Assembly (NCBI GenBank): GCA_001938485.1
Contig: MQRK01246661.1
Location: forward strand, 1-52,277
DNA: 52,277 nt
Direction of reading: 5' to 3'
Origin: Girardia tigrina
Lineage: Eukaryota
Below, in pieces: positions 1-52,277 of the stretch (position 1 is the first letter of the stretch; the number at the start of each line of letters is the position of its first letter). A model generated the notes under the pieces. That model had not been told where the DNA came from, ran no database searches, and saw nothing but the letters and a program-made list of their open reading frames with translations. Made by a program: the position numbers and the translations under genes.

Positions 1-115
1 GGATATTAGATATTTTAATTATTTGAAATATTTAATATTTACTTTTTTGATAAATATTTTGTTTAAATATTATCAATTAAACATTGTTTTGAAAATAAAC
101 TTTTCGCGTGTTACA
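1..115 (+). mobile_element. 3' part of an LTR (solo or 3' LTR) of the family at 27821-31430
   Basis: Nearly identical to 28292-28406. Ends ...CGTGTTACA and is not followed by the AGCTATC PBS. Confidence 0.85.
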
Positions 116-581
116 AGAAGAAGGGACGGGGACCCCGGAATTCAAATATTATATTTAATATTTATATATAATATATTCAAATTTTGTATAAATAAATATA
201 TTATTTCTTACATTTTTCACGGACAGAGTAAGAGCAACAACTTGGAAAAACCGGATCACGTGCTCCTCATCTGCTCGAGATGCGGTCATCGTCGAAGGTG
301 GTTGACACCTCCTCGCCCGACTGGCGATCGTTGAAAGCGGCGACCGGATTTCTTTCGCTCGAATGGCGATCGTCAGAAGAAGGAAAACACGCTCCCCTGC
401 TACCAGATTATCGTTCGACACTCAGGTTGCCCCGAGAATCGGACGGGGGTAAAAAAGTTGCGCAAGGAAACCTTCTCGTTGTGTTGGGCCCGTTTTTATT
501 TGAATTGACGCTAATTGAACCTCCGCAGTCGAATAATATTAACAAATATCTCGTGATCTTCTTTATCTAAATCGATATTTT

Positions 582-17000: not shown

Positions 17001-20000
17001 ACTTCGATGTTCAGAAGATCTCCAAGGACAACAATGACGAGTGGTATCCATGGTGGGTGAGATAAAAATAATTTATTCCCCACGACTCAAAGTCCACCCT
17101 TCGACGCCGAGTGTCGCGGCCACGCAAGTGATTCCCCTGCTCTGTTATTAATTGATTTAATTACGCATACCATCAAATAAAATTGGAAGAAGAGTCAAAG
17201 GTTAAGATGATATTCTCAAGAAAGAACAAACATACTGTTTCAAAAGAATGCTTTGGGAATTGCGGCTGCCCAAGTGAATTTTCAGGAGTTAATGGTGAAA
17301 TTTTTGGGAAATTTGAATTTGAAAGAAGTATTTGTATATTTGGATGATATTTTTATTTTTGATAAACATGAAAAAGAATATCTTCAAGGAGTATTTAATG
17401 TATTTCAAAAAAATTAAAGAATCTGGTTCAATAATAAAAATGTAAAGTTCTTGAAGAAAAGACAAGCTTTTTAGGATATTTCATATGTAAAGCAGGTATT
17501 GAAACAGATAAAACAAAGATTAAACAAAAAAAAAGTTAAACAAAAAACTCGTCATACATTAAATTTTTAAGGAGATTTTTTTGACTTGACAAATTACTAC
17601 ATAAAATGTACAGCTTTTCAAAATCAAAAAACAATAATGTCTAAAACCCCGATTTCTAAATATTTTACCAAATATTTTATGCTTTATTCGGACGCAGGTT
17701 TTGATACAATATTAGTAGTGTTAACACTGAAAGACAAACATGGAAGAGAAAGATATAAAATGAATCATTATATGAAAAGCATAAAATGAATAAACATAAA
17801 CTTGGCTATTAAATTACAAGGAAATAACTTCTTGCATTTTGTTATTTTAAACAGAATTTTAAAAAAATTTTGTATAGAAAAATATTTTTGTTATGAACAT
17901 ATCAGGTGTCAATATATACTGGCCATAATAGACCAGTTCAGTAAATATATTAACTTGAATACAGTTGCTAGTAAAGAGGAAAAAATAATATCTTTCTATT
18001 GTACAGATGAATCTGAAAATTTTTACTAACAAAAGAAATTCAAGTAGACAGAGAAAAAATTCAATCGGCTTTGTTCAAAGAAACAGCTAAACAGTCCAAA
18101 ATTGAGATACTCTATTCGAGTTCCTATCATCCATAATACAAATGGAATCGTAGAAAGACAGTTTTGATCTATCAGAAAAGCTTTAAATATTAAAATGAAA
18201 GATAAAGATCATAAAGATATGGCAGATGTTTTATCAGAAATTTAGCTTATGTTGAATAATACTGTACAAGATACGACAGGTGTGTCACTAACCAAAATAG
18301 TATTTGGACGAAAATTTAGACATCGGTGGAAAAAAAATTAAGAAGATGACGAAGAAAACATAGAGACAAGAAGAAAATTTTAAGTAAAAGACGGAGTAAG
18401 GAAGGAAAAATTTTCAAGCGATGATGACTGTTGCATGGGTCTGCAAGAGTGGTGAAATAATCATGAAAAAAAGTTAAGAGTTATAGCTTGAAAATGTCAG
18501 AATTTTTAAAGTCAAATATATCAAAGGAAATGTGAGAAGTGTTTTAATTTTTTATGTTTTTATGTTTGAGTGTCATGTACTGATTTGAATTGTGTCTCTT
18601 ACTCTGATGGCTTCTTATCATAAACTATTTTAATTAAATTTATAGTTTAATATTTATATTTATTTTAAATTTAAAAAGCGTTGTAAAATTTCTAGTGATT
18701 TGAATAATTTATTTTTAATTTTTAAATGAATGAAATATTTTTAAAAATAATTAAAATGAATTTTAATTTTTAATTATGAAATTTACGAGACATTATTTTT
18801 AATATTCAAATGTCATTATGATTCAGATAATTCTAAATTATTATATTATCCTATTAGAGTGATGTTTTTGAGTGACATATTTTATACGGATAATCTTAAG
18901 GATGATCCGAATTGAATTGCTAATAAAATTTATAATCAGTGAGTGCGTTCTCTTAATAAAATCTTAGACCATTTTGAACTTTTTAATGAAATGATTACTA
19001 AAATTGCAGTACAATGTAAAATATTTGTGACAAAAATTAGTTTGAATTTAATGCTAAAAAGATTTGAATAATGTAATTGTTATTTAAATAATTTCAATAG
19101 TAACAAAACAGGAAATTTTCTCATTCATAACCGGAACTTCAAATAATATGTCTCATTCACTGGAAATTATTCATTTAAATTCTACTGTTTACCTGCATTT
19201 TGAAAGTACAATAATTTTTATTTTAAAGCTTAAAATAATACAATTAGTAAAAAATGAATTAATCAACATTAAAAGATATTTCGGTTTTCAATATAAATTA
19301 TTTTGTCTTTGTGACTTACTTTTTAGTCAAGAAAATGGATGGCATTGTCTTCTAAACAGTATGGACAAGACAACTGAGTAAATGTGACTTTTTGTTAAAT
19401 ATTTTATTTAAATTACTTAAAGAATACAAAGCTTGACACAAATTAAAAAATATAATAATATTCCGTATCAGAATATTTTTTTATTATAAATATATTATTG
19501 TTATGGTTATAATTATGGGAATAACATAAATAAAATTAAAGGATTATTATGAATAAATTATCGTATAAGTAATAAAAGCAATATCAGAGATCATGTTCAT
19601 TTTTTTAATTACAATAAAGACGAAATTTGAATTTAGTATTGTCGAAAAAATTTTAAATATAAATTTTTTAAATAAAAATTATTGTACTTCCAATACCGTC
19701 CAGGGATTTCAAAATATCTGAACTAAGAATTTTTAAAAAGTCTTTTCGTTTGATCTTGTNNNNNNNNNNNNNNNNNNNNNNNNNNNNNNNNNNNNNNNNN
19801 NNNNNNNNNCCCGCCGTTTTTTGAAAAATTAAAATTTTATTTTTAACAAAAAAGTTACTAGAAATTAATCACAAATATAATCTCCGCCATTGTTCACGAC
19901 TTCTTCCCAACGTACAACGAGTTTTTCAATGCCTCTTTTGTAGAAATCGCCCGGTCTTGACTCGAAGAATTCAGCCAACGAAACTTGCAGTTCTCCATCA

Positions 20001-23000
20001 TTGTTGAACGAAACACCACGCAAAGCGTTAGAAAGTGAACGAAAAAGATGAAAATCAGATGGAGCAAAGTTAGGTGAATACGGAGGGTGCGGTAATACTT
20101 CCCAACCAAGCGTTTGAATGGCTTCTGTTGTCATTCTGGCAATATGAGGACGTGCATTGTCATGTTGCAAAATAATGCCATGTTGTCGATCCGGATGTTT
20201 TTGTCTTATAGCGGCGTTGAGTCTATGCAGCTGTTGAACATAAAGTTCCGATTTCACTGTTTGGTTTCGAGCAAGCAATTCATAATGAATAATCCCTTCC
20301 CAACCCCACCAAACACATAGCATTGTCTTTCGTGAATGAAGATCCTGTTTTGCTCGCGGAGTCGATTGTACTTCTCGGCTACACCATTCTTTGCGCTGTT
20401 TCATGTTGACGTACAGGCACCATTTTTCATCACCCGTTACAATTCGATAAAGAAATTGTTACTTATGAACGTGAGTAGAGCGATGACGGGCAAGCAAACT
20501 CGCCGAAATTGTGTATCGCTGGTTTTTGTTGTTTTCGGTCAAAAGATGTGGGACCAAAGCTCCCATTTGTTGAACTTTCCCCATTGATTTCAGGACGTTG
20601 ACGACAGTTTTTTGATCACAATCCATTTGTTCCGCCAATTCTCGAGTGGTTTGACGCGCGTCTTCATGCAAAAGTTTGTTCAAACGCTCTTCANNNNNNN
20701 NNNNNNNNNNNNNNNNNNNNNNNNNNNNNNNNNNNNNNNNNNNCTGTTTCATGTTGACGTACAGGCACCATTTTTCATCACCCGTTACAATTCGATAAAG
20801 AAATTGTTACTTATGAACGTGAGTAGAGCGATGACGGGCAAGCAAACTCGCCGAAATTGTGTGTCGCTGGTTTTTGTTGTTTTCGGTCAAAAGATGTGGG
20901 ACCAAAGCTCCCATTTGTTGAACTTTCCCCATTGATTTCAGGACGTTGACGACAGTTTTTTTATCACAATCCATTTGTTCCGCCAATTCTCGAGTGGTTT
21001 GACGCGCGTCTTCATGCAAAAGTTTGTTCAAACGCTCTTCATCGAATCCATTTGGTCGTCCTGAACGAGGTGCATCCTTGAGGTCAAAATTGCCAATTTT
21101 AAATTTTGCGAACCAATCACGAGCGGTTCTATTAGCTATAGCACCTTCTCCGTATACAGCACAAAGCTCTCGGGCAGCGTCTGCGGCTTTGGCGCCTCGA
21201 TTATACGCAAACAATAGATGGTGTTGGAAATGCTTATTTTTGTCGACTTGACACTCCATTTCAATGGTCTAAAAATCGACAAAAATTAATGTGAATAAAA
21301 AAACAAAATACACCATTTTTTAGAGCAAAACAATAGCATTCAAATAACATATATTATTACATCAAAAAATTTGATTTAAATATTAAATTGATTAAAAATT
21401 CAAAAAACGGCGGGAACTTATTCCTCAACCTAATATTAATATTCAACTAAATTATTGTTGCAATGAAATGAAATTTCAGTTACATCTAGGGTTAATAAAT
21501 GTTTATTGTCTTTATTCGATGACCAAAGAGAGCACAATATTGTATTTTTTCAAAAAGATTCAGACGAGGTGGACGATTATGATATTCGACTTCAACTCAT
21601 AATTTACGTTTTGAAAGACCGAGTCATTATCTATCAGATTTTAAACCGAACGATCTGTCTGAGAAACTGTGATCCGTATTTGACACCGATTCTCAGGCAT
21701 TTCTAAATCATAAAAGACAATCCAATTTGCTATAATCTTTATCGTCTTATCGATGAAGTCATTACAGAACTGAATTTTACACAAGGATAGTATGTATTCC
21801 GATCCGACATTAAACATTCTTGAATCGTTTAATCTCACGGATATATTAAAAAAATCAATGATCCAAATAATATCCAGAACGCGTCAGAAATTCAAAAAAA
21901 TTAAAATAAACTAAACAACATAATTGAAAGTTTATAAAAATCAAACAAATAATGATCGATTTTCCGAAGTAATGCAAGTCAATGAACAATATTAAGAAAA
22001 CAAATGTTACTTTTTATATTGTTATTAGTATAACAATTTTGATAGTCCTCTGGACGATCTTTGGCAACACTTTTTTACTTTTGCATCCTAATTGATTAAT
22101 GACTTAAATTTTAATATCTGAGTAAATGGAGATTGAATACTCATTTAAAATATTTACTAAAAATTTTATGGGTTAAAAATTAAAATAAATAATAAATATT
22201 TTAAAAATATTAATTCATTTTATTTATTTAAATTGTAAATAATAGTAATCGACTTATTTAAAATTTTAAAATAATTTTAAAATTAAAAATAAATTTAACC
22301 ATTACACATTTTAAATAACAAGAACAAATATATTAATCAGTCATCTAGGTAGGAGAAACACAATACCCAAATCAACATACAACATTCAAACACAAAACAT
22401 CAAACATTCCAAATATTCCACAAACAATTTTGTTGAAAACTCGGAAATTCAATTAATTAGGAATCCAGTCAGTGAAAACGATAATTCGGAATCGAAGAAG
22501 AAAGTCAACAAAATCAAAAGCATTCGATAATGAAAGTCAAGTAATCGATGAGAATAAATTTCAGGAAAAAATCAATGCAAATTTTGCATCGATTTTAAGT
22601 ACTTTTTGATTGGAGTCAATAGGTTATTATAATTGGTTATTACAATAATAAGTTGTGTAGGAAAGACAATTGATTGATGTGACCTTTAACAGAAATTATT
22701 TTCATGAAACAAATAAAATTTAACAAAAAAAGTTTTAGACAATATCGAATTTGTTATTTAATTTAAATATAAAGATTTGGCGTTTTTAAATTTTGTATAA
22801 TGATAATAACAATTTGAAACTAACTTCAGTTACTTCCGGTTGTTACAAAATCTTTGGGGCTAAAGCGAAAGTTTGTAAGAATCGATTGTTAACAATAACC
22901 GATAGTCACTCGACGGTAACTCGACAAGTCAAAGTTTTTTAATTTAAGCAAAAACCAGTACTTTTAAAAGGGGAGTTTTTAAGAATTATTTGATAAGTTT

Positions 23001-28200: not shown

Positions 28201-31200
28201 GCGCGTCTTAATTTATTACATTGATTGATTTAAACAATCTCAGGAGTTTTTAATTATTCAGGATCCTTTGATATATTATGATATTGATGTTGGATATTAG
28301 ATATTTTGATTATTTAAAATATTTAATATATGCTTTTTTGATAAATATTTTGTTTAAATATTATCAATTAAACAGTGTTTTGAAAATAAACTTTTCACGT
28401 GTTACAAGCTATCCGGGAATAATGAAGGATATAAAAATCGTTTTGGAGCTTTTGGAAAAATTCGATGGAAGCGTTAGCTTCGAGATCTGGCAGAAGAAAT
28501 TTGAAATGGTCATGAAAATCCAGAAGATTACCGATCCAGACCTGTATCTCCCTTTTTTACTATCGGGGGTTGCACTGAACATCTACATGGAATCGGACGA
28601 AAAGACGCAAAACAGCTGCGATCGGTTCTTCAAGATACTAAACAATTCGTTCGACCTGACTAGACGGTCCGCGTACAGTCAATTGATAAACTTACAGTAC
28701 CACGAGGGCGAGACTATCGATGAATATGCGTCTCAGGTGAAGATGCGATCTAATAAGGTCGACGATCTAACAAAAGCCGCCTTCATTACTGGACTGCCTT
28801 TCGAGCTGCAGCTGGATTTGGAACGGGTCGGCGACCAACCCTTGACCGAAATGATCGAGTATAGCCGTAGGTATTTGGGGATTAAAAAGGGTTTATTACA
28901 TGGTCCAATGACATTAATACAACACAGAAACAACAACAAAGATCCGGAGGTCAGGGAAAACTCGATAAACCCAGAGCAAATCTTCACAAAGGACCCTATG
29001 TTTATCGTGAGGGAGACACCGAATCGGAGGAAAGGAAGCATCATAAGGGTTCTCAGTGGCAATCGAATAAACATACAATATGCTAACAATGTCAGAAACC
29101 GGGTCATATAGTAAAATATTGTCAGTCGGGAAACGAACAGGGGAGTTTGTAGGCGCCGGCTTCACAGATCCAGGCGTTACTGACGATGATCGTCACCGTA
29201 AATGACAGGTCAGCCATAGCGTTGATTGATTCGGGTTGTTCGAAAATGGTCGTTATAAAAGGGTTAGTTAGTGATTGTATGTTGTTTTCTGACAGGGAAA
29301 GTATGGTTTTAGCGAATGGAAAGGGTGTTAGAGTGGGTTCGGGTAAAGTACGGCTGACTATAAATGGTAGGATTCGTAGGGTGAAATGTTCGGTCATGGA
29401 ACATTTTCCGTATGGTCGAGGGATCTTAATAGGTATGGATGTCATAGGTTAATTTGGCAGCGTGAGAATTAATAAGGGTGTTATTGAGTTCGGTGAAGAA
29501 GAAATTAAAGGGACAAATAGTAGCTTGAGTTTTACCGCATCGGATTAGCTTCTTGTTAGCATAAAAAAGCATAATTTTGAGATTAAGTGTAGGGAAAATT
29601 TGTTGATTAAATGGAATTGTAAAAGTGAGGCTCCTAGTTATCTTCCAAATCGACAGTCAGTTTTAAAAGACAATAAATTAAAAGATGTTGCAAAGTTGAA
29701 AATTTTAGACAGTTGGGTAGAAAAGGATTATCTAATCGAGTACAATGAGAAAGAAATGGGTAAATTGATAGGATCCATACCGATATTTGGAATATTGCAG
29801 GCTAATAAGTCCAAAATAAGACCCATTTTTGATTTAAGAAAATTAAACAATTACGTGGATGTTTACAGTGGTTCAGCGGATGTATGTTTAGAAAAGCTCT
29901 GCGATTCGCGACGTAGGGGTTCGACTTTTTCAATGCTTGATTTGTCAGAGACTTACATGCAGATTCATGTTCATAAGGAGATGTGGCGTTACCAATCTTG
30001 TATCATTAATAACAAGAAATATGCTTTAACTAGGATGGGTTTTGGTTTAAACATTGCACCAACTATAATGACNNNNNNNNNNNNNNNNNNNNNNNNNNNN
30101 NNNNNNNNNNNNNNNNNNNNNNGTCAGGTGGATTCTGAACTCTGACATCAGGATGCGTGAAAATACCGACTCTTATATTGATGATATTTATGTAAATAAA
30201 AGTTTCATTTCTGTTGAAGAAGTAGAAAAAGTGTTCAATAACTTCGGTCTCAAAGGTAAGAAACCGGAAAATCTGTCACAAGCCAACGAAGTTCGAGTTT
30301 TAGGAATGAAAGTCTTTAAGGACCAACATGTAGTGAGATGGAAGAGGGACAATCAGGTAAGGGATGAGCTGGATGTGGAATCAATTTCACGTCGTGAGTT
30401 ATATTCGTTATGCGGACAATTAGTTGGAACACATCAGGTAGCTAGTTGGCTACGTCCGTCATATTCATACCTTAAACGACTTAGTGAGGGAAGGTGGGAT
30501 GAAAAGATAGACGAAGAATTATTTGAGAAGATTAAATGGGTTGTAAAGACAGTGAGGGAGATTGATCCTTGCTGAAGTTTATGGGCCATTGATGACTGCA
30601 GGGAAGGTATTATATGGTGTGACGCAAGTTCAATAGACATTGGTTCAGCGTTAGAAGTCAAAGGGAACATAATCGAGGACGAATCATGGTTGAGAAAAAC
30701 TTATGATTCTAGGCATATTAATGTAGCAGAACTAGAAGCAGTTGTAAAGGGTTTAAACTTATGAAATGGGGTTTAAGGAGCGTGATAGTCAAATCGAATA
30801 ATAAGTCATTAGTTTTGTAGATAACCTCAACAACCTCAGATCGCGAAAAATTTAATACCAACACTTCATCTGAGCTTTGAATAAAACGACGACTGTCGAT
30901 GATCAAGGAGCTGTGTCAGGAGTATGAGATCGAGTTGAAGATCGAGTTTGTTAATAGCGAAGATAACAAGGCGGACGAGTTGACAAGAATCCCAAAACAA
31001 TTAAAAANAAGCAATTGTTTTTTAACGGTTACGGACGATCTACTCAACCTGCAGCAACTTCATGATAAGTGTCATTTAGGCCCAAACAGAATGCGATATC
31101 TATGTGCGAAGCAAGGAATAAGTGTATCAAACGTGAATATCAAGGATCTGATTTCATGATGTGAAAAATGTCAATCCATCGATCCGGCATCCGTAAAATG

Positions 31201-34200
31201 GAAAACCGGTAGGCTGAGCATCAATGAAAACTGGACAATACTTGCTGCGGATGTTACAAAGTACAATGAACAAAAATTTTTAAGTGTAATCAATTGAGGT
31301 CCTTCTCGCTTTGCGATATGGAAATTAATTAAGACTGAAGACGTCAGAATTCTCAAGTTTGTTCTGTGAACGCGGGTCTCCCAAGGAACTAATTATCGAT
31401 AATTATACCACACACAAGATCTCTGTAACACAAAGTTTTACTAGTTAATGATCCTACACGCATGATTTTTTCGGAATTTCAAGCTAAATTTAAATTTATA
31501 TTTCTTTTTATTTTTATTTATTTCTATGTGAAATGGCTAAGATTACGTTAGATGTTTCTGAAAACTGACAAAGATTATCGATAGACGTCACAAAGTTTCA
31601 CAATGACAAATACATAACAGTAGTGGATACTGGCTCATTGAGAATGGCAATATTACAAAAAATGCAAAACGAAATCTGTGAAAAGACACGTACTTTCTTA
31701 AATGGTTGTTAAAATTTTATTAAATTGAATAATTTAGAAAAATTATTAATTTAATTCTGCGAAATCTCAAAATTAAATTACAATAGTACTAAAGGTAAGA
31801 TACTCTTAGGGTATTGTTCTATAAATAAAAGCAAAAAACATAAATTTTATAACCTTGCTTCAAGAGGAACAATTTCACCGTCATCTGTTACTTGTTCCAA
31901 CTCAAACTTCTGAGCAGCATCTAATGATAAAGATATAATATCAGCAGCACCACTGGATCCCTAATTTTATAATAATAATTATTTTATGAAATTTAATTAG
32001 AACCTGACAGAGAACCACGGGGCATTTGTTTTCAACAATCGAATGACAAATTTGACTTAAAGTTAATACATCTCCTCCGACGACTAATCCACATATTGGA
32101 ACTCTAGTTTCAATAGAAGTTTCATTATTTAATGTTTCGGACTTCCAAAAAGAAATTGCGTGTTCAAATCTGGATCTAAACTGTACATCATTTTCCCTAG
32201 GGTCATTAGACGGAGGAACATCAAAAAGGAGAAAATGTGAATGATTAGTATCAAGGGATTTTTCTTTTTTATTTTCAATGACAATTCCTTCTTCATTATC
32301 TTCGGGTTCTTCTTCTGACTGATAAATTGCTGGATAAGTTCCCTAATAAATATAATTTTCATTACTGTCTATTATATATAAAACCAGTAGTTTCCAATCT
32401 ATGAAAACCACCTCTTTAAGAGGTGCATAATTGTTGACAAAATATTATTTTTTGTATTCACACAATACAAATCACATCGAAGTCAAAAAAGATAAATTGG
32501 AGTATATATTTAAGTTTATTTATACATAATAGGCTGTACTGACCACTTTTATAAAAAATTTCATTAAAAACTTTTTATAAAAAAACTTTGATAATAAAAA
32601 AACAATAAACGATTAAATTAAATTATAAAAATTGATTTAATTTAATTAAAAAAACATAATTTAAATCAATATTAGTAATTATAAATATCCATATATATTT
32701 AAAATATACTATATTAATTATTTACAAAAAAAATCAGTTGTTTTAACGGACGATTTTTATATACTTTTTTGAAATCGAATAAATTTTTAAAACGGGTGTC
32801 AATCTTTATCTTTAATAAAACTTTTATTTAATTTTTTTCTATAAAAATTATACTCCGGAATTATCCGTCGAGTTTTTATTCACCCTCAACATATGCTATA
32901 AAAGTTTTAACCAGTACAATAAATTACAATATCAAGTAAATATTTATGAAATGTAATATTTTTTGAAAGAGAGGCATAAATACGGAAAAGTTAAAAACTC
33001 TTTATTAAACTAATCCGTTAAAAAATCCAAAGTTTTTTGGAATGTTAATTGTATTATTTATTAATTTACGTAGCACTAGCATAATTTTACTACGGAAATC
33101 CTATTAGATTTCCATAATTTTCAAAATTCAACTGTCAGAAACAAACAATAGACTAAATGAAAAGTATTTTTAAACACATTAACAGTATAATTATTCAACA
33201 TATTTATTTTAAATATTCTTGTTTGTTAATAAATGTATTGTAACTAATCCGATTAAAAATCCAAAGTTTTTTGGAATGTTAATTGCATTATTTATTAATT
33301 TAAGTAGCACTAGCATAATTTTACTACGGAAATCCTATTAGATTTCCATAATTCCCAAAATTCAACTGTCAGAAACAAACAATAGACTAAATGAAAAATA
33401 TTTTAAAACACATTAATAGATTAATTATTTAAAAGATGTATTTTAAATATTCTTAATAACTCTGAAAATAGTTTAAATCAAATATAATTAAAAACATTAT
33501 ATTTTACCTGATATAAAGCATTTTCTAGAACTTCGTTTTTGGCTACTTTATGCCATGGTGCTACTCCTATTGCAATCATTTTATTTCCCCCATATGCATC
33601 AGTGTAATCTCTAACTGCTTCCCCTGCCAGCTTCATTATTCCCATATTCAAACCTTCTGTTACAATCCAGCAGCCTTAAATGTTTAATAATATCATATAC
33701 AAATTAAATAAAATTTCATTTTATTTTAAATTTTTTTATTTCATAAAAATACTTGACATATTTAATTATTACTACAGTTCCAAAAAATTCTTTAAAGATA
33801 CCTATAGTGTTAAAAACAGAAAAATCACTAAATTTTGTGTCAAACTCTGAATTCTATATAAATTCTATATTTGAAATTTAAAATAACGATAATTATTTTC
33901 GGATTTTGATAAGTAATTTTGATCGTAATTATGAAAGGACAATTATTGAAGCACTGTTAATAAAGTTTTAAAACATAGTTTAAACGTGAAAAGTGATTTG
34001 TACTATAATATTAGAGTATTTTGACGTAATATGGTCATCTTACTATATCAACAATCATGTCCGGAAATTTCTACGAAAACATTTAAACGAAGGGAATTTA
34101 TACGAAGGAAATTTATACGAATGGAAAATTATACGAATGAATATTTATACGGATGAAAATTTATACGAACGGAAATTTATACAAATAAAAATTTTTGAAT

Positions 34201-34394
34201 AAAAATTCATTTTTGATTTTATAATAAAAAAATGTTTTTGTAATCGAAATGTTTCAAGTATTTTCAATAGCTGTAATAACTTCTGTTAAAACAAAAAAAA
34301 ACATTACTTTTTACCCAAATGACAATGAAATGGAATATTTACATGAAGTATCTCGTAAAATTAAATTCTAAATTGACTTATTTATTAGTTTAAA

Positions 34395-34428
<34 letters not shown>

Positions 34429-34478
34429 NNNNNNNNNNNNNNNNNNNNNNNNNNNNNNNNNNNNNNNNNNNNNNNNNN

Positions 34479-34531
<53 letters not shown>

Positions 34532-37500
34532 GACTTGTGTTTTCTAATGTTTTGTAAAAATAGTTACCAAAATCTTATAGACTTAAATATAATATTACAG
34601 TAAACTCGGCTTTGGTTGCAGTAAACGTGTTGTGTATTTTAAATTCTTTTCTAAAATATTTTTTGTAGAAGTTAATACAGCTATCAAAAATATTTTATTA
34701 ATATTATTTGTATAAATTTCCCTTTTTCAGTTGTAGAAATTTCCGTTCGTACAAATTTCCATTTGTATAAATGTTATTAGTATAAATTTGCGTTCGTATA
34801 AATTACCGTTCTTATAAATTGCCATTCGTATAAATTTTCATTCGTATAATTTTCCATTCGTATAAATTTCCTAGAATCATAAATAATAACATTTTGGTTA
34901 TTTTTTTATATTTTAATATAAATATATAAAATAATAAAGTACTGAGATTTTCCGAAAATAAGCGCATCCAAAAAGAAGTGCATCAGCGCTGATTTTTTGC
35001 TTCCATATAAATTGATCAAAATAATAATTGCTCCCTGTTCGAAACTGCCATTTTTACATCGAAATAAGCCAATTATTTTTTTGATCAATTCATAAGCAAA
35101 CACAAAATCAGCGCAGATGCTCCTCTTTTTGGGTACCATTTTTTTCGGAAAACTCCGGCATGTATTGCTTTAAATATGTCGTTAAATGAAGAACAGATGA
35201 CATCATTAGTTCGAATATATTATACACAAAAGTTGACAAATTGTTTCGTTCTCAAATATTAAATTTGATATTGTTCTATAAAGAATAATCAATTTGATAC
35301 AGATTTGAATAAATAGTTTTGTGAGTTTGTCGAAATAGATAAAACTAAAACGTGAACTGATATCAAACATTTTGTAAAAAAAAGATTGAAAGGCAACAAA
35401 AATTAATTGAGAAAATTTGCAGGATACTGAAAACTATTCTGTTTCATGATTTAAGACTGCACTTAAGTAGGGTACGGAGTATAAACATAATTGTGATAAA
35501 CTTTAAAATGTTTCGACCCTTGGAAGACCAAAATATGCCACAATATTTGAAATCGTCGAAACATTCTGCGTTATGGTTAGATAAGATCTCCTTTTAACTC
35601 AATACTGTTTCAAATGAAATAAAATCTAACATCACTTTTTTTACACCGCTTAAAATTAATAGTTATATTTGCAAACAAAAAATAAAAATTAGATAAATAT
35701 TAAAAATTAAGTAATTTAAGGAGAATTAATGGAAGTTATATGTAAAACAGGAAAATTGATTGAACTATGTTACTTCCAAATGTATTTGACAAAAAAACTA
35801 AATTATGAATTTAAAGGTAACTAACTTTTGATATTTTTATAATATTTTGATATTTTTGTTATTTTAAATATAAATTATAAGTATTTTTAAATAATTTAAA
35901 TTACATAAATTAATTAAATTTAAAAAATAACATTTAGAACTGTGGAGGATTTCGTTTCTTAGAGAAACATTTTAATAAATGACGTCAAGAAAATAATAGT
36001 ATATTCATTTACAAAATGTTTGAAAAAGTTTTGAAGTATATAAAAAATAATTTTATGATATCAAATTTGTATAAACAAAAATAATTAAACCATATAAATT
36101 ATATTACAAATGGTTCCCCGACAAAATAGTGCCATATTTCCCGACAAAATATTGCTGACCATTGATTTTTTAAGTCTCTGATTTTGAAAATTAAGTCTCG
36201 AGAAATTAAAATTTTAAAAAATGAAAAAATTGGGTAAATTTCAGAAAAAATGAAAAATTCAAGTAAATTTTAGAAAAAAATTCTGTACTTAATAAAATAT
36301 AAAATATTAGATTAAAATATAAACATAATTATAAATATTCAAAAAATAAAAAAAAAGATGGCAAATTATTTTTAAAAAAAAAATACGCCATTTGTTAAAT
36401 AGACATTTATTTTTCAAGACAATTAATTTCGATGGTATAACCGTCATCGTCAGGTCTCAAAAAAAATCAATTTTAAATCTGCTTATATAGGCAAGCAGTG
36501 ATTATGTCATAAATTGATTATTATGTCATCTAAACACGCTCAATAGGGTTTTCGATAGACCCGTTTGCACATTAATCTTGGGATCTAAAGATCTGATATA
36601 AAGTCCTTCACAGGCCACACTCTCCCAATAGTTTTTAAAACGAGAGCAGAATTTTAAAATCATTTATGTTTATGTTTTCATTCGACTTACAACCCTTTCT
36701 ATGTTCTGCAATATTACTCCCACCTACATTCTGACCATGTTCTTGGATTATCTTACAAAGATGATTGGGGCGTCTCTCCAATGTATGTGGCATTACACCC
36801 ATTACATGTAAATTTATATAAGAAATCCGAACATAATCCAAATGGGGGTTGGAGATTTATTACAAAATACATTTTGGATTTTATGTGTTTGTGATATTAT
36901 TTTTAAATTAAAGGCATTATTTAAAATACGCTTTAAGTATTCCATATTCATAGGGATTTGGTCAATTTAAACGTTCAATTTTAAAAAGCGTAAATATTAA
37001 TAATTACTTAATTTTCATTTTCCTGATTGAGATTTAAACAATTAAATATTATTTAATATTAAAATCAAATTAAAAACTTTATGTTAAATATTTTAAATAA
37101 TACTTTAAAATTGAAGTTTTCATTTTTTTTAAATTTACTTGAATTTTTCATTTTTCTTTATACTTATAATTATGTTTTTATATTTTAATCTAATATTTTA
37201 TATTTTATTGTATACAGAATTTTTTTCTAAAATTTACTTGAATTTTTCTTTTTTTTCTGAAATTTACCCGAGTTTTTCATTTATGTTTTCCTAGACTTAA
37301 TTTTCGAAATCAGAGACTTAAAAAATCGATTGTCGGCGCTATTTTGTCGGTCACCATTTCAAATGGCGACACCTAAATGATCTTATTGGACGGAATCAAT
37401 TATTGATCAAGGAGATGAGAAAGCTGTTTAGAAATTCACATTTTTGGAACCTCTACTTACATGAAATTGGAATAGTTACTCAGAACACGGTTTTTTAACT

Positions 37501-40500
37501 ACTGAAAATGATTTTTTCTGTGGTTTACACTCTCCAACAAACTCTAAGGACTTTGTGATAAATCAGAAGAAGCCATTTCATCAGAAAAAGGTATATGTTT
37601 TACAAGTAGTGCTTCAGTTCATTTCTTCTTTTCATGGCTATCACATTTTTATGTGATGCTCTTTGTTATGATAAAAATGATTACGAATTTAAAATCGTGC
37701 TTCATGACTTTTTATCGACTCATTATTCAACATTTATTATTCAGTTCTTTGGAAGATTGTAAATTAGTAATTTTCCCTTAACATCTGTGAACATTGTTTT
37801 GATTGTTACTTTATAGAAGAGGAATAATTTTAAGGTCAAATTTAATATTATAAGCAATCGCCTAATTATTTGTCTGTAAAGGTGTACATCTACAATCTAT
37901 ATGTGTGGAACCCATCTGTTAGAATCGAGTTCTAGAGGAAGGATTTGGGCGAACACGGTCCCATGAAGGTCCTTGTAATTAATTGGATCATCTAATTTGT
38001 TTGAATAATATAGTATTTTGTAAATCGAAAATATCATCTTATTTTACAAGCTATCGTGGCAATGAAAGCAATCAGTAATTTGAAGAAATTTGATGGTGGG
38101 GAGGACGTCGAACGTTGGATCGACAGATTCGAGTTTGCCATCGAGGTAGACGGGCTAATGGGAAAAGAAGTCTCATGCTTGGTCATGCAGTTGGACGGGC
38201 CGGCATACAACACTTGGAAGGGCTTATCGCTGGATCAACAGAGAAACACCAAGGAAATCAAAAGTGAGTTGCGCCGAGTGTTTGGTTTGTGGAAATTTGA
38301 CGCATAATATTTGAATCCCAAACAATTCTGTTATTAAATTTTTTATAATTTTACTCATCTTTGAATTTTATTCAAGTAACGTTATTAATTGAAATAATTT
38401 TTAATCTTTGTTCAAATAGAAAATTGACATTACATTAAAATTTCCTCAGAAACGTATTTAATTTAATTAATTGTCCTAAAACTACAAGTAATTTTAACGG
38501 GTATGGAACTGTCGGCCATTAATGCATTGAGATGCAAATTTCTTGTAGCTCGTAATAAAGTGTGTTTCTTTTTTTGGGACAATGTTTCTTGAAGAAAGTC
38601 CAAGGAAGTGGAACTCAGTTTTATAATCATGAAAATATTAGTTTGCTGCTTAGATTTATTTATACTTAGATTTATTTAGACAGTTCGAGTCAGGAGTTTT
38701 CAAGACTATGATCGATAAGTTAGGCGCCAAGCACGCGCACACGTCTGTGTACCACCCCCAGGCCAATGGGGCAATAGAGTGGTTCCACCGCACCTTTAAA
38801 CTTCCATCAAGATCTTCGCTGACAAGAACGCTCGTTGGGTGGACGCAGTTCCCTATGTTCTTTTGGGGTGGCGCAATACTCCTAACACCACCACAGACGC
38901 TTCACCAGCCCAAATTCTCTACGGAACATCAATCCGTTTTCTTTCAGAACTCACCGATTGTAACATCACCCCGTCCGACACCGACATGGCCGCCGCAAGA
39001 AAGCAGTTCGAAAACCTGCCCAAGGACAAGTTTTACCAGATGCCTAACCACGCAAAAACTTTCCTCCTAGAGAGTCAGTACACCACTAATTTCCTCTGGC
39101 TCAAAGACCACACATCTAGTAGGTTGAAACTACCCTACACCGGACCTAACAAAATCATTGAACTTTACCCCAGCAACGCGAAAATTCTCAAAGACGGCAA
39201 AACTATCACAGTCCACCTCAACAACACCAAGCCCGTCTTCGTTATGGACGACACCCCCATCCCGGGCAGCGATAACATGACCAGTTTATGACCGTCACCG
39301 ATAAACCGTTCATTACCACTACTCCAACTCCGTGCGAAGGAGCCAGCGGAAACACCGCAGCTAATACCAAGACACCGCACGCCGAAGACAACAGTAACCA
39401 AACATCATCTGATGACATTGTCGTTACTAACCAACGCAACTCTCGCATTAGACCTGCCAGATTCACCAGTTGGGCACCAATGCAAACCCCAACGGGCATC
39501 AACAGATTCCGCAGGGTCGAACAATAACCTTCTGCGTTTCCTTTCAGGCGTGTCTCGTGTCTTTCCTTCGGGGGAGTTGTGTTGTGTGCCACCACATTCT
39601 TGTTATTTTTATTGTTGTTTGGAGAGAAATTTATTTGTGTCTATTGTCTTTATAATTAATGTTTATCGCTTTCTCTCTCTCTATTTCTGTCATTATCTCT
39701 ATTACTGTCTCTATCTAATTGTCCTTTGTTGCAGTGTAAATACAGTTCACTCACAATGTGGAATGTGCNGTTTGAATTTGGTTTTTTTTATTAATTTCAG
39801 AAACGAATTTTTTCTTTGATTTGTAAATCGTAACCGATATCGGCAATTGTTCATTTTTTTCTGTTTAATTATTTTTTGAGTTGTCTGTGAATAAAAATAA
39901 TGCTAAAATAGCAATAGAAATTTAATGTCAGAAATTACAAAAAAATATTATCGTGGATAATCAAAAAACAATTACAAAAAAATTATAATTATGAACGTGG
40001 TTAGTGAATGTGTGAATTTGTTTTATTAAACTAAATATATATTTTCGATTTGAGTTTCTTATGAATTTTGTGTTTATAAATGAGTGATTTCCTTAAATGG
40101 GCGTTTGATCATTTCTGCAGAGGAATTAAATCATCACAACACGCAATGACGAAACAGTTTTCTCGATTCTATAATTGTTTGGGAGCCACGTACGAAATCA
40201 GCCGATTTTTCGAATCTCGTGTCCGTAGACCTGACGAATATACGACATTGGTGTTTCATTAATTAGTATTTAAACTAAGGATGTCGTGGATTGGTTTCAA
40301 AGGAATTATATACATGAAAGAATTAGAAGACATAAGCATGATGACACATGGCTTCGAAAACCACCTTTATTTTTAGAAACAGCATGGTCGATATAATATT
40401 CTTTTCAAAATGACATTTCACGTACTTAGAATGTCTTAGAAGCTTGATATCGAAGACGGGAATGCATTATTTAACGAGCATATGTTGGATTTTACAGAAT

Positions 40501-43500
40501 AATTTAAAAATTTCAGAAAAAACAATACCAAGGCAATATATAACAAATTTTCAATAACAAATAATATTGTAATTTTTAAGTAATTTTAATAATTTAAAAA
40601 GTTTCTTTTATTCTTTAATATAGTATATTAAATTCTTACTTTTTTTTAACATTTTAACGATATTTATAAACATTTTTATTCGGGATTTGAGTTTTCGGGA
40701 TTTTAGCGCACTTCCCTTCTGCTCATAGAGAAAAAAAGTATCATTGACTCAGCGTTGTGATAGACTATGAAAATAATTAATTCGCAATTCGTGACTTAAC
40801 TTCTTAATTAATTTCGTAAAAAATTTATTTAACACATATACATATGGTATGCACCTGTGTGATCTGTAAGAAATGCAAAAATATGAAATAAATAAATTTG
40901 TAATTTTAATATGACCAATAACATTTGTCTAATTATTCTAAAAAAGTTTTCTGAATTATTATCGAGAAATGCTTTTGAAGTGTAAGACATCATTAAAAAT
41001 ATTTAACATATCCCCGTTTTCTAGGGAATTCTAAGGACAAATATTTTCAAGTTTAACAACCCAATATTTTATTGTAATGTCTACTATTCTTTCATTATTA
41101 TCGTGCAGTATCTTTTACCTTATCACTAATTATAAAATAGTATTTCATTTTCTGGTAGGAATAAAATGGTTTTGTTTGCCCTGTTTTAAATGCTTGCATT
41201 GAAAGAATCTTTCTTCAACAGAAGTAAAAAGGATTTGAGATAAAATTTTGTAATTAATTTACGCTTTTAACAGTTTGCTGTCATACAAGTTATCGTAAAT
41301 AAATTTGTTTTTATATTATTTTATATTAATTTATTTTAGACCTTTTTATTTTCGTCCAATTGACCTAAAATATTATTTAACGTTTATGGATGTATAATAC
41401 TTGAAAACCAAGGATAATTAAAAATCAGTCTTTTGTGAAAATGATGGAATGGGTTGGAATATCAGAACACTTGTAGAATTTGTACGACATTTTTACATCT
41501 ATTAACTAATTTAGTAAACACTTTCTTAACAGCTTCAGTATAATGATCTATTTTAAATAGTTTCTTACAATTGTAATATATTTATTAAATAACTTCTGTA
41601 ATTTCTAAAAATTTAATTATGTTTTATCATATCATAAAAATTTAAAACCATATTAAAAATTTTTATTACATCTGAAATTATCAGAGTAAAATTTATTTTC
41701 TGACTCCATGAATATAGGAAATTAATCTTAGAAATTTAATTACAGAATTTTATTAACTTTAATGTATGAGTGGTTTAATTATTATTATTATTATTTTAAA
41801 AATTAAAAATCATTTTACCAGCACTCTCAGCTGCTTTCCATAAACCCTTTTTAATAATCATTTTCAGTTTTCTTTTTTTCTCAAAATCTCCTCCAAATAT
41901 ACTGATCACGAGAGTTGGATAAGTAAGTTCCCATTTTGATTGTAAAATATTTTGTATATTAATCTCCGGAGTTGTGTTTGAAAGGCGAGTAAACTACAAG
42001 TTAAATTTCGTGAAAAAAGGATAAATTTCATATTATTTCAAAATTCTTTAGAATAAGAATTTGTTTTAAAATCATTTTACAAAATAACATTTTTATAATG
42101 TTGTCATTTAATTAAATTTCGTAAATAATATCATAAGTTAAGGTACTCTATTGTTTAGGTACCGAATGAGTATTTTAGATTTCTGGTTTGAAGCAAGGCT
42201 CTGGTTTCCAATATTCTTTTATACATATAATGATATAACTGAAACTGTTTTACGTGTCATTGAATTTAAATTTGATACTGATCGACTTTTTTTATTGTAT
42301 TTTTATTACATTGCTTGTATTTATTTGTAAATTTATGCTAGTGTATCTTATTTGTATATTTGTATTATGCATATTTAAATTTACAAAATACCAATAGTAG
42401 TTTTGATTTAAATATATATAGTTTACTGAACATTAATTTAAAACTTTAGAAATAAATATTTATAAAAACCCCTTTTAAAAGATTTTCGTTGAACACGTTT
42501 CTATCAGCATATTTGATTGTAGTGATCCGATTATAGATACAAAGTTTTATTAAAACATCGATGATGTTAAAATAGTGTCAGTAACATCTTAAGTAAGAGA
42601 CTTCCTTACATTGAAATCGAAAACTGCCAATATTGTGAAAGGTATTCTTGTGTAAAAATTTAAATGCTATAGGTGTCAAAAGTCGTACAATGGAGAGACA
42701 AATAGTCATCTAAAAATACAAATTAGTTAGCACTCAGCGATAAAGAAAAAAACTTGTTTGTCTGTATTAAATAAATTATGAAAAACTGGAAAAAAATTCA
42801 AATAAAAAGAATGTCGTGCAAATAAAGGGAAATAAAAAATTATTGTCGCTCTTTCCTTCATTTTTTCTCATCAAATCACATAATTAAAAATGTGTAGTCC
42901 GCAAATTCAAGTTATCAAATGGTGGACTGAACCGATTCGGCCAAAATCGACGCCGCCACATTTCAACTCCCACCGACGGGGCGAGCTGGGGTCGTGTGCG
43001 GGGATCGAGCGCATCGCTTATCCTTCCAAGTGGATCCAGCGGTCACTGGAGCCTCGGCTGACCGATTGGGGGTTCATTACTCAGCAATGCACCTGCTGGA
43101 GGCCACTCAGTCCGACCGGTTACCGGCGTCCACCGAACTGGCCGATCAATTATTCCATCCTGCATCTTCCTGCACAATTAAGAAGTGCTTGCCGCCGCCA
43201 CTCGGTACGGCAGATGGCACCACATTGATCATCCCCAGAAACTTTTTATTTCAATAAATTTTAGAGTACATTTGAAAACCAAAGAAAATAGTAATTTATT
43301 ATAGTTGAATATTATTGGATAATACGTATTCTATTATGTATTTACCATTATCATAAATTATTTAATTTAACGATCTAATAGGCTGAGTGCTCACTAATTT
43401 GTATTTTTAGATGACTATTTGTCTCTCCATTGTACGACTTTTGACAACTATAGCATTTAAATTTTTACACAAGAATACCTTTCACAATATTGACAGTTTT

Positions 43501-46500
43501 CGATTTCACTGTAAGGAAGTCTCTTACTTAAGATGTTACTGACACTATTTTAACATCATCGATGTTTTAATAAAACTTTGTATCTATAACAAGTAAATCT
43601 TATAGATAAATGAATAAATTCATTTTTCTCTATATAATTATTAAAAAATATTCAGCAAAAATCAATTTAAATTTGACTTTAAAATCTTACAGAGAAGCTA
43701 TGGGTTTATTAATGTATATATAGGTATGTATATATTATATAAATAATGTAAAGAAAGAGAGAGAATAAATTATTTTAGAAGATGAATGTATTATTCTAGA
43801 AGATAAAAAAATCAGTCTAGAATAAAAATGAATTAAACTAGAAAATATTTTTTGAACGAGATCAGCAGATAAATTTTAATGTTTTAAATTCTTTTTTATA
43901 AATTTTAAATTTAAAGTTTTAATTTAAATTTAAAATTAAAAAGGTAAAACTTATGCACAAGCCTTCGTCGCATCTTTCTCTTTGTAACCTCGAAAGCTTG
44001 CACATAATTAAGTACACCCACGGTTCAACGGCTAAGGTTCAAAAGAAGAAGAAGAAGGGGAAAATTTAATTAAAAGGGTGAAATAGATTGTATTTTTAAA
44101 TATAATTTTAATCAAAATGTCATGAATTTAAAAAATTTCAAATTAATGGACCAGAAAAAAACAAATCAAAACAATAAAGAAAAAGCCAGGAACCTAGAAG
44201 ATAAAGATTCATATTATTCAAATGATGTTTCCAGTGAAAAAGAATTCATCGAAATCTCAAATAAGCCAAAAATATTGTAGCAAATAGATAACAATAGATC
44301 AAGATCCAATAAAAGGCGTACGAAAAGATACAAACATTTAGTTATAAAGATGATGCTACAGACTATGCCATGCAAAACAATTTATGGGTGAAATCAGATC
44401 TACGGGACTGTCCAATTGTAGAAATGAAGCGATTCTACAAATGTAAATTCAAAGCTGCTTGTTGATACCCTGTCAAAATGTTCATGATTTATCACCACAA
44501 CAAAGCAAACGTGTAAGTATTATTAGATGTTTTTGGAACATCGTTGAAATTATTACTATGAGTTATTTCAGACATCAAAACTTTTATTATACAAAACAAA
44601 AAATGTTATATCTCATATTTAAACAAACTTATTATTTTTTTGAGATACAATTTGTTTTATAAATCTTAAATCGATATAAATAAAAATACTTATAAATATT
44701 CATATTTGATTTTTTTATTAATTTTATAAATTAATTTTAAATTATGATTTTTATAACATTTAAAATATTTAATCGTTTCGTTTAATTTTATTAATTTTTT
44801 AAAAATCATTCCAAGTATAAAAATTATGCATTAATATTTCGAAAGAGTGGACGACAATACATTAATGTTGGTATGAAGGATTTGAGCTAGATTACCAAAA
44901 CCTAATAATGGTTTAGAATCAACTAATTATGTGATAAAGAAAGATGGAACAACATGCAAGCGTTTATCATTAGCCAGCTATCTGGAATTAGTTCAGTCTA
45001 AAATTGTAGAGATTGATCAATCAATAGGAAAAGCAAATTAGCCTCATCTTGTTTGAAGAGGTGCAAACAATTAGCCACGAACTGTGGCTTAAAATAGATA
45101 TCACCATAAAACGAGGCGAGTGTGAGGCTGGACTTGACACGCGGACGAACACCTGAAACCGCGTTTTCTCTGACAAAATGGATGGACAAGACCGGCTCCG
45201 GTAAAAATTAAATTACCGGATTTAGATGGCGCATCATCAAGCAGAATCGGGCCGCCATCTAGCCCACGTGCGATGCAGTTTGAATCGTCGCGGTCGTTAA
45301 CTAATGCACTGCGAGTCGAGCAGTGATGCGCTCGATCGTGCTCGATAAGTTGGCAAAACGTGCAGAATTTTACGTTCGCTCTGATGTTGCGAGAATAGAT
45401 TTTGAGATTCTTCGTCACCGCTAATTCCCCAAAATACGCGTACTCATTGGAGTTTAAATAAAACTCCAATGGAACTGGTGGCGGTTGAGAAATAACCGCT
45501 TTGAAATAATTCGGTAAGACATCTCGTGCTTATTGATTTTTATCGATAATTCGTTTTAATTTCACTGGGAACGTGAGTGAGTTCGATTCAGATACATTCA
45601 TTCGCAAGATAAATTATATTCAAATTCGAGTATAATTCAAACAACTAAAAAATTATTTTTGTTAAATTATTTAAACACAATTTGATAATTATAAATAGTT
45701 TTTCTCTAAGTATTTTTTATTTTTTTTAGAAACATTATTTGAAATTTCAACACCGCGTGCACAAGAAAATATACACATATATTTTTATTTTGATGAAAAA
45801 AATTTAAACTGTGATTTACTAAATCACTACACACCACTCCAGGAGAAATGACAGCAGTGATGTCAAAAAATAAAGAGAAGGTTCATTACATGGCGTCAGG
45901 TTGAAAAATTGCTACAAATTTCAAGGACAAGCAGTTGAGTTTCTGCGAGCTATGCCTAATGGAAGATAAGAACGATTGGACTTTTAGCACATGCAACTGC
46001 AGAGAATTCCAAAAAAATTTGGTCTGTAAACATTTATTACTGCTTGCCTGTCGTTATTAGTATACTTCAATAACACTTAGAGCGCAAAATATCACATTGT
46101 GTCCAAAACAGAAGCGTTATCACCATGTAGAAATCAAAATTGCTTTGGAAACAAGCCGGTTCCAATGCCTAAGAAGTACAAAGTAAATGAAGTGTTCCCA
46201 AATAATAATTCTAAAAAATCTTAAACGGATAAAACTTGTTAAAAAATTTAATTTATTAAAACACGTTATCTTTTTTTTCACGTTATTTGTGTGAAAAAAA
46301 TATGGGATGACAACTCTAACTCTGTGAATAAAATAATAAACAAGCAGGCACTGAAAGAACTTCATAAATTTTGTGCTAAAAATGTATCTTTTCTTTTCAA
46401 TGATTCATGAAATTCAACATTGAAGAAGACGGGGTCGCAATGGGTTCACCATTAGCACCAACTTTGGCATCAATTTTTAAGAAGTCGCTTAAGGATAAAA

Positions 46501-51522: not shown

Positions 51523-52277
51523 TAGACATGTACCGGTTTCACTTTTTCAAAACCGACCGTTTCCAGTACCGGTTTTGAAAAATAAAAAATTATCAAAAAA
51601 GAAAAACCAACATTGAAACGAAATAAAATTTTTATTTTGTATTTTTAACAGAAATACTAACTTCATCAATTAGATGAAAATTAAATTTCAAAAGAATTAA
51701 TCTCTCTGTATTCTCCGGTAATAGCCTTGATTTTTGGTCGTCCAATGTTTTTCCTGCAATGCTAAAAACTCTTTCAGAAGGAACACTTGTGAGCGGAGAC
51801 ACACGATAGGTACGAGCGATCTGTGATAGTCTTGGGAAACGATGATTATTGAAGCCCCACCAGTGAAGTAGATTTTCTTGTTTTGAAATAAGTCCTTCAG
51901 ATAAATAGATGTCCAATTCTGTTTTCAACGCTGATGCTGGAGAAAAAGACAACTTTGTCTGAGACAGCGATAAAATCTCGTCAAGACTTGACCAGGGGCT
52001 GAGATCACAATTTTGAGAAATGTTCATTAAAGTTTTTTCAGTTTCTAAATGCTCGACGATTGTAGTGATTTCATTTATATACCAACATGTAAAAGCTAGA
52101 AGGTTATCTTTAATTTGTGCAGATACAAACTCAGAAATGCAGCGATGTTTAAAACTGGGATTCAAAAGAGTGGCGATTGCTCAACATGGGTGAATCTCCA
52201 TGTTTCTCAACCGTTTTATGAGAGATTTCAGCAACTGTTCCTTCATTGTTTTTAATTCTGAATCAACTTCGGGCTTT
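51523..52277 (-). mobile_element. hAT (Ac/ZBED1-like) transposon 3' end with dimerisation domain
   Basis: ELDIYL, LHWW, FPRLSQIA, TSVPSERVFSIAG, RLLPEN. Terminus TAGACATGTACCGG with subterminal ACCG repeats. Confidence 0.9.

Follow-up and report, generated by a model that had tools for sequence, protein, structure and literature searches.

A compact animal LTR retrotransposon lineage outside the sampled Gypsy, BEL/Pao and DIRS groups, with a primer site matching the 5' end of host tRNAs

The stretch analysed here, 52,277 nt of the Girardia tigrina contig MQRK01246661.1 (assembly GCA_001938485.1; hereafter the window), carries on its forward strand, between positions 28288 and 31412, a retroelement whose pol joins DIRS-like ribonuclease H (RNase H) motifs to an aspartic protease and a DDE integrase. 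To which group does such an element belong, and how would it prime reverse transcription? A preliminary description had proposed a deep lineage outside Ty3/Gypsy, with unusual priming. We found that the element, now decayed and truncated at its 3' end, comes from a compact long terminal repeat (LTR) retrotransposon whose lineage branches separately from all of the Gypsy, BEL/Pao, DIRS, caulimovirus and retrovirus sequences sampled. The lineage is real, widespread and apparently unnamed, and carries what appears to be a strong signature of priming from the 5' end of a tRNA. Considering both its separate branch and its site for tRNA nt 1-12, we give a probability of about two in three to the reading that it primes from a 12-nt 5' piece of a tRNA.

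The motifs named in the preliminary description are all present at their places, in the order protease, reverse transcriptase (RT), RNase H and integrase. The protease (29186..29450) has ALIDSG at about 29220 and matches PF13975 with E 2.5e-5, below the curated cut-off. The RT fingers and palm (29740..30350, with a 50-N gap at 30073-30122) are marked by RMGFGLNIAP and YIDD, the motif LTRMGFGLNIAP lying at about 30027-30062 and YIDD at about 30175; Gypsy and DIRS have a longer stretch following YxDD. Next comes DUF7047 (PF23088, E 7.9e-14; 30387..30557), the marker of the lineage, which probably represents the RT thumb, judging from its position, and is helical in the structure model of a relative. 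RNase H (30600..30995) follows directly, without a tether, and contains CDAS (about 30618), HINVAELEAV (about 30714-30743) and NKADELTR (about 30966-30990). These motifs are not a product of chance, since the genome holds at least 151 matches and the same motifs run throughout a 34-row alignment of relatives. The last domain is an integrase remnant (31045..31412) with an HHCC zinc finger at about 31060-31172. Likeness to other copies stops at 31412, so that only the first two acidic residues are kept; the HHCC-DDE integrase described earlier therefore lacks its E in the window, and is complete in another copy (L034).

The lineage is not restricted to planarians. A protein search returned 67 hits, most of them with DUF7047, and a search for longer hits returned 706, with DUF7047 in all 120 of those listed. 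A cluster search at 50% identity gave 785 clusters with E<=1e-30, fragments counted. Named hosts are Hydra, Watersipora, Macrosteles, Amphibalanus, Petrolisthes, Pomphorhynchus, Trichuris, Trichinella and Octopus, covering six animal phyla. DUF7047 is found in 48/48 aligned members and RVT_3 in 43/48. In terms of hits outside animals, viral contigs gave no relative of the lineage, with the DIRS pattern returning noise only, and DUF7047 was not found in 12 contaminated assemblies. One bacterial assembly (G004; L297 and others) holds 133 retroelement RNase H profile matches together with BEL and DIRS contigs, and is apparently contaminated with animal DNA.

Despite hundreds of sequence clusters, the lineage has only a DUF label. 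We found no description of it in the full-text literature, where DUF7047 occurs in 0 papers; Repbase, GyDB and subscription journals lay outside this search. Neither the lineage nor primer sites are mentioned in the portions available of PMC12859917, PMC8556966 and PMC6238403. Some members may already stand in Repbase or GyDB under Gypsy. A planarian genome study reportedly mentions LTR families outside known Metaviridae.

The phylogenetic position was assessed against natural sequences whose labels came from their Pfam content or a motif: Gypsy, BEL, DIRS, caulimoviruses, gamma- and deltaretrovirus-like pol, and one Copia row. Near-duplicate, gapped and unalignable rows were removed, and trees were built on subsets of 21-65 rows. 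The DIRS rows come from eukaryote-like contigs within bacterial assemblies; one row (L537), of DIRS type, was labelled Gypsy in the tree with the Copia row and relabelled in the later RT plus RNase H tree. The lineage is monophyletic in RT (100/99 with 65 rows, 99/99 under a mixture model, 91/98 with the Copia row), in RNase H (97/91) and in both combined (100/99). The branch uniting Gypsy and caulimoviruses excludes it with 98-100/97-99 in RT and RT plus RNase H, and with 92/79 in RNase H alone. In approximately unbiased (AU) tests on RT plus RNase H, grouping the lineage with Gypsy was rejected (p 2.5e-8 and 0.0007), and the Gypsy RNase H profiles PF17917 and PF17919 matched 0/48 members at E<=0.01. 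The proposal of a deep lineage outside Ty3/Gypsy is borne out by these results. Trees and AU tests together place the lineage inside neither Gypsy, BEL nor DIRS as sampled.

The RT-RNase H model of a relative (pLDDT 89) resembles retroviral and caulimoviral RTs at 10-19% identity. A sequence search of the PDB, uninformative on position, gave top RT matches of about 40 bits (foamy virus, HIV), with MMTV as the top integrase, ahead of Ty3.

Among the alternatives, the one that survives best holds that the lineage is not a superfamily of its own but belongs with BEL/Pao (Belpaoviridae), either as a deep and highly reduced branch or as a sister group. This is a question of rank, compatible with the priming proposed below. 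The domain order is that of BEL/Pao, and the free trees join the two in RT (97/90), RNase H (93/87) and both combined (99/96, or 95/92 under the mixture model). It is a sister join only, the BEL clade itself standing at 100/99-100 without the lineage. However, the join was flagged as a meeting of long branches in three trees and lost resolution once the Copia row was added, so it may be an artefact. BEL profile scores are among the lowest (RT 77 bits, RNase H 58 bits) and Gag is short. Furthermore, the BEL signature is missing: Peptidase_A17 matches 1/48 members, weakly (E 8e-4), and the PRLEL motif is absent from the lineage alignment. Nor does the integrase tree group the main subclade with BEL. 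We regard a BEL/Pao affiliation as doubtful.

The second part of the question concerns the primer site. Retroviruses and LTR elements as a rule prime from the 3' end of a tRNA. Here, the family site AGCTATCCGGGC lies directly after the CA of the LTR and complements nt 1-12 of the host tRNA-Lys(TTT), that is, its 5' end. The window copy has it at 28407..28418, with 11/12 matches and the last base altered; most family copies match 12/12. Relatives at 35-55% protein identity keep the same position, with the letters facing the acceptor stem altered.

We compared 18 LTR-anchored copies, selected by us, with a partial set of host tRNA genes plus one Phe-like head. With all tRNA positions scanned, the best duplex starts at tRNA position 1 in 18/18 copies, with 9-12 Watson-Crick pairs of 12. 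In the same copies the best match to a tRNA 3' end is 5-7 of 12, and the best self-match in the LTR 5-8 of 12. As a control for chance, random interior 12-mers reached 11/12 in 5 of 200,000 draws. Variant sites match Lys(TTT) at 12/12, Tyr at 11 plus one GU pair, and the Phe-like head at 12/12.

A wider census was anchored on the start of gag and not on the motif. Out of 75 metagenome loci, 40 were testable (29 had no gag hit and 6 lay at an edge), and 36 of these have an AGCTA-type site. A 37th, L107, has the variant site CGCTACCGAGGC, which pairs 11/12 with the 5' end of the host tRNA-Met. This tRNA has G at position 12, and the first base of the site has changed with it, so that site and tRNA have both changed. 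Three loci show no site at all. In the planarian genome, 18 of 49 further loci were testable: 12 have the exact motif and 6 have near-variants or are cut by the search window. The canonical TGG site occurs in 0/40 testable metagenome loci and 0/18 testable own-genome loci. The odd priming suggested earlier is thus matched by a tRNA 5'-end site in 37/40 testable metagenome loci, lineage-wide apart from one divergent locus treated below. The position of the site, its complementarity, its change with tRNA identity and the lack of a self-complement are all observed directly.

How could such a site work? Following production of Gag-Pol, presumably by a -1 frameshift, the 5' strand of the tRNA would anneal to the primer site, flush with the LTR. 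The 3' end of the primer must lie at the LTR border, which corresponds to tRNA position 12. The tRNA continues from nt 13 with C-A-G, which cannot pair with the LTR end, so a cut or trimming after nt 12 would be needed to supply the 3'-OH. The cutter could be the element's own RNase H, in the manner of Tf1 self-priming except that a second molecule is cut, which we put at slightly better than even; a host-made or trimmed 5' tRNA fragment would be a primer of nearly equal likelihood. For the plus strand, the primer would come from a purine-rich tract that abuts the 3' LTR, and insertion of the cDNA would fall to the DDE integrase. Position 9 is A in every matched tRNA. Methylation of G9 (m1G9) blocks pairing, and an A at this position would avoid that block.

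In its most specific form, this reading makes the lineage an unnamed group of superfamily rank spread over many animal phyla, in whose main branch the primer is nt 1-12 of an elongator tRNA (Lys, Phe, Tyr or Met), set free by the element's RNase H; we consider this form evenly balanced between true and false. Such priming would, with the same even odds, represent a mode between tRNA 3'-end priming and Tf1 self-priming.

Several observations weigh against priming from a 5' tRNA piece by a separate lineage. Both the primer and the cut are deduced from sequence throughout. L123, an internally deleted and divergent member probably near P0311 and P0314, has an ordinary CA-TGG site, so the tRNA 5'-end site is not universal in the lineage; its subclade is also the only divergent one for which DNA was available. 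The variants AGCTATTTCGGC, AGCTATCTAGGC and AGCTATCACGGC are common and stem from metagenome hosts outside the tRNA set compared; the two that were scored against own-genome tRNAs both pair at 10 plus one GU. A search of the planarian genome for an intact tRNA-Phe gene was negative, and the presumed label Phe depends on a 31-nt head. As for the trees, they contain no Troyka, Odin, Loki, hepadnavirus or named GyDB references, and Copia is a single row. The lineage as sister to Gypsy plus caulimoviruses has p 0.016 under LG+G4 and p 0.083 under the mixture model, hence is not rejected in the latter, and the deep position given here is provisional. Finally, of the separate RT, RNase H and integrase trees proposed in the preliminary description, the first two place the lineage outside Gypsy, but the integrase tree splits it in three and does not separate it from Gypsy.

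Two side observations belong to these points. The divergent subclades (L123; P0311, P0314, P0244, P0249, P0267) have longer, more Gypsy-like integrases, and an exchange of integrase or a change of priming within the lineage is possible. The Phe-like 5' heads of tRNAs (L289-L292) break near nt 25-31 into a common repeat, and in L289 a Phe-like 3' half lies close by; a tRNA-targeting element may have split tRNA genes here.

It could also be that the 12-nt site serves the packaging of tRNAs or tRNA fragments, regulation, or self-priming, the true primer being something else. We found no earlier case of a primer whose end lies at tRNA position 12, and, as far as the accessible part of PMC4600332 describes them, Tf1-like self-priming sites likewise lack TGG. 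On the other hand, the site adjoins the CA of the LTR, exactly where the 3' end of a primer must lie, no canonical site was seen upstream of gag across 58 testable loci, and the LTR offers too poor a self-complement, which makes such a role improbable.

Two self- or fragment-primed systems are the closest comparisons for the proposed tRNA priming. The RNase H of Tf1 makes the self-priming cut. Copia and Ty5 are primed by a tRNA-iMet 5' half-molecule whose end lies in the anticodon arm and which anneals through an internal stretch; the lineage resembles them in that the proposed primer is a 5' tRNA fragment and not the CCA end, but it matches nt 1-12 of several elongator tRNAs. In Tj1 and Tf1, the primer site complements the 5' end of the element's own RNA, according to the part of PMC4600332 available. 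Both cases thus have a site that complements an RNA 5' end which must be cut, but the partner in the lineage is a host tRNA and not its own transcript. No description of tRNA 5'-end priming was found in the full-text literature, subscription journals being outside the search.

Still less probable is the reading closest to the DIRS-like label given earlier, namely a chimera or DIRS sister in which the RT-RNase H of a tyrosine-recombinase element was joined to a protease and a DDE integrase. The label is partly justified: DIRS rows share HIN..EL.A and an upstream W with the lineage, and DIRS is the top raw profile match in RNase H (81 bits, against 66 for Gypsy) and in RT (127 against 124, in effect a tie with Gypsy). 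The relationship is not. No RT, RNase H or combined tree groups the two, and AU tests on RT plus RNase H rejected the grouping twice (p 0.02, under LG+G4 only). DIRS is far closer to Gypsy (RT 207, RNase H 99) than to the lineage, and also scores higher against caulimoviruses. The predicted RNase H structure is equidistant (TM 0.74-0.76) from BEL, Gypsy and unnamed clusters. Unlike DIRS, the lineage has a protease, a DDE integrase, direct LTRs and target site duplications (TSDs) instead of a tyrosine recombinase. A search of the planarian genome for DIRS references gave 8 tyrosine-recombinase hits, with no DIRS RT-RNase H beside the 7 that were read, and the DIRS RNase H pattern gave 11 hits, all of this lineage where read. 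HIN..EL.A looks like an old shared feature or convergence rather than a DIRS-derived module. Among the tyrosine recombinases of the genome there is a multi-copy stand-alone family (L162-L168) with open frames in several copies, which we take to be Crypton-like.

Least likely is a fast-evolving ordinary Gypsy drawn out of its clade by long branches: domain order, TG..CA ends, 5-bp TSD, the CX2CX4HX4C knuckle, YxDD, the integrases, those of divergent members included, and the near-equal RT profile score are all Gypsy-like, but the AU tests and the missing RNase H profiles speak against it, the lineage stays outside Gypsy and caulimoviruses under the mixture model even with BEL removed, and it differs from Ty3/Gypsy in its length of about 4 kb and its primer site.

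Other groups are set apart by their features. Copia has its integrase before RT, the lineage after it; no Copia was found in the planarian genome and one usable Copia RT elsewhere. In the model and the alignment, RNase H comes directly after the thumb, without the tether and second RNase H of Retroviridae, Odin and Loki. The Troyka elements or Kuafuorterviruses, proposed as a top-level group only in 2024-2025, are a precedent for an overlooked superfamily: they too are LTR elements of animals that fall outside Gypsy, and they share the domain order. As described in the available parts of PMC12440569 and PMC11673190, they have CG..CG ends, a 3-bp TSD, a CX2CX8-10HX4C knuckle and IADD, VADD or LADD. 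The lineage has TG..CA, 5 bp, CX2CX4HX4C and YIDD instead, and identity with Troyka is ruled out on these features of termini, TSD, knuckle and RT motifs. RLGFG, RMGFG and GFGLN have 0 occurrences in the accessible portion of the Kuafuortervirus supplement holding RT alignments (PMC11673190).

New top-level LTR groups are seldom found. If true, tRNA 5'-end priming would be a further mode of priming, with a direct role for very short 5' tRNA fragments; it would also allow escape from control by 3' tRNA fragments and provide a testable link to RNase H-dependent self-priming. Annotation by TGG primer sites or Gypsy profiles would miss or mislabel these elements.

The anatomy of the family was derived from twenty genomic copies with flanks. 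The genome (1.43 Gb, AT-rich) gave its matches in an RT-RNase H search in which 150 of 9,777 candidates were scored, with 83-91% protein identity among the matches listed. Family LTRs are 118-120 bp, with TG..CA ends and 95-99% identity between the two LTRs in six full pairs, and the full element measures 3.84-3.95 kb. The preliminary description had also proposed to measure the TSD. It is 5 bp in 8/11 two-ended copies, with one 4-bp match and two without duplication. With two direct LTRs, this TSD and a protein set of Gag, aspartic protease, RT, RNase H and DDE integrase, other copies have the traits of an Ortervirales-like LTR retrotransposon, and in its working the element resembles the Gypsy and BEL types. 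Ten LTR pairs of other families span 3.2-4.6 kb; with flanks read by eye, exact 5-bp duplications flank six of them (two once the boundary is moved by 1 base), two show one mismatch and two no duplication.

Gag comes first in the family layout, followed by the pol domains, with pol overlapping gag in the -1 frame. The candidate frameshift heptamer GGGAAAC, at 29128..29134 in the window, occurs in 24/54 stretches upstream of the protease, and some slippery-type heptamer in 47/54. A hairpin stands behind it in other copies and is partly deleted in the window copy. In four copies (L080, L072, L067, L057) the hairpin loop GCGCC could pair with a downstream GGCGC, possibly as a conserved frameshift pseudoknot. 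At the other end, in L034 and L046 the pol frame crosses the purine tract, with its stop codon inside the 3' LTR. Since gag starts 15 nt past the 5' LTR, nearly the whole interior of the element is translated.

The window copy itself is decayed by stops, frameshifts and the 50-N gap. Its 119-bp 5' LTR (28288..28406), whose limits were set from the LTR pairs of other copies, has the TG..CA ends described earlier, which hold as a pair in other copies only. The integrase E, polypurine tract and 3' LTR are all absent here. The family TSD was therefore read in other copies. Gag (28422..29152) is frameshifted and has a stop in the window; its single CX2CX4HX4C knuckle is intact in another copy (L037). 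At the contig edge, positions 1..116 of the forward strand hold a 3' or solo LTR of the same family, 95% identical to the 5' LTR. It is not followed by a primer site and belongs to a different insertion.

The rest of the window contains several other features. At 1395-2408, on the reverse strand, a different gag with several CCHC knuckles (PF00098) and one stop belongs to another LTR element, with no pol seen. Exons of a host gene, which we presume to resemble the N-terminal region of TRPM channels, lie at about 31840-33700 on the reverse strand, the retroelement copy standing just beyond them on the opposite strand. By eye, there are fragments resembling a mariner transposase (19865-21268), a Gypsy integrase (38654-39291), a GIY-YIG domain of Penelope type (46928-47320) and a hAT C-terminus (51632-52180). 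Long inverted-repeat pairs at 42531-43589, 36141-37350 and 34106-35152 are probably non-autonomous DNA transposons.

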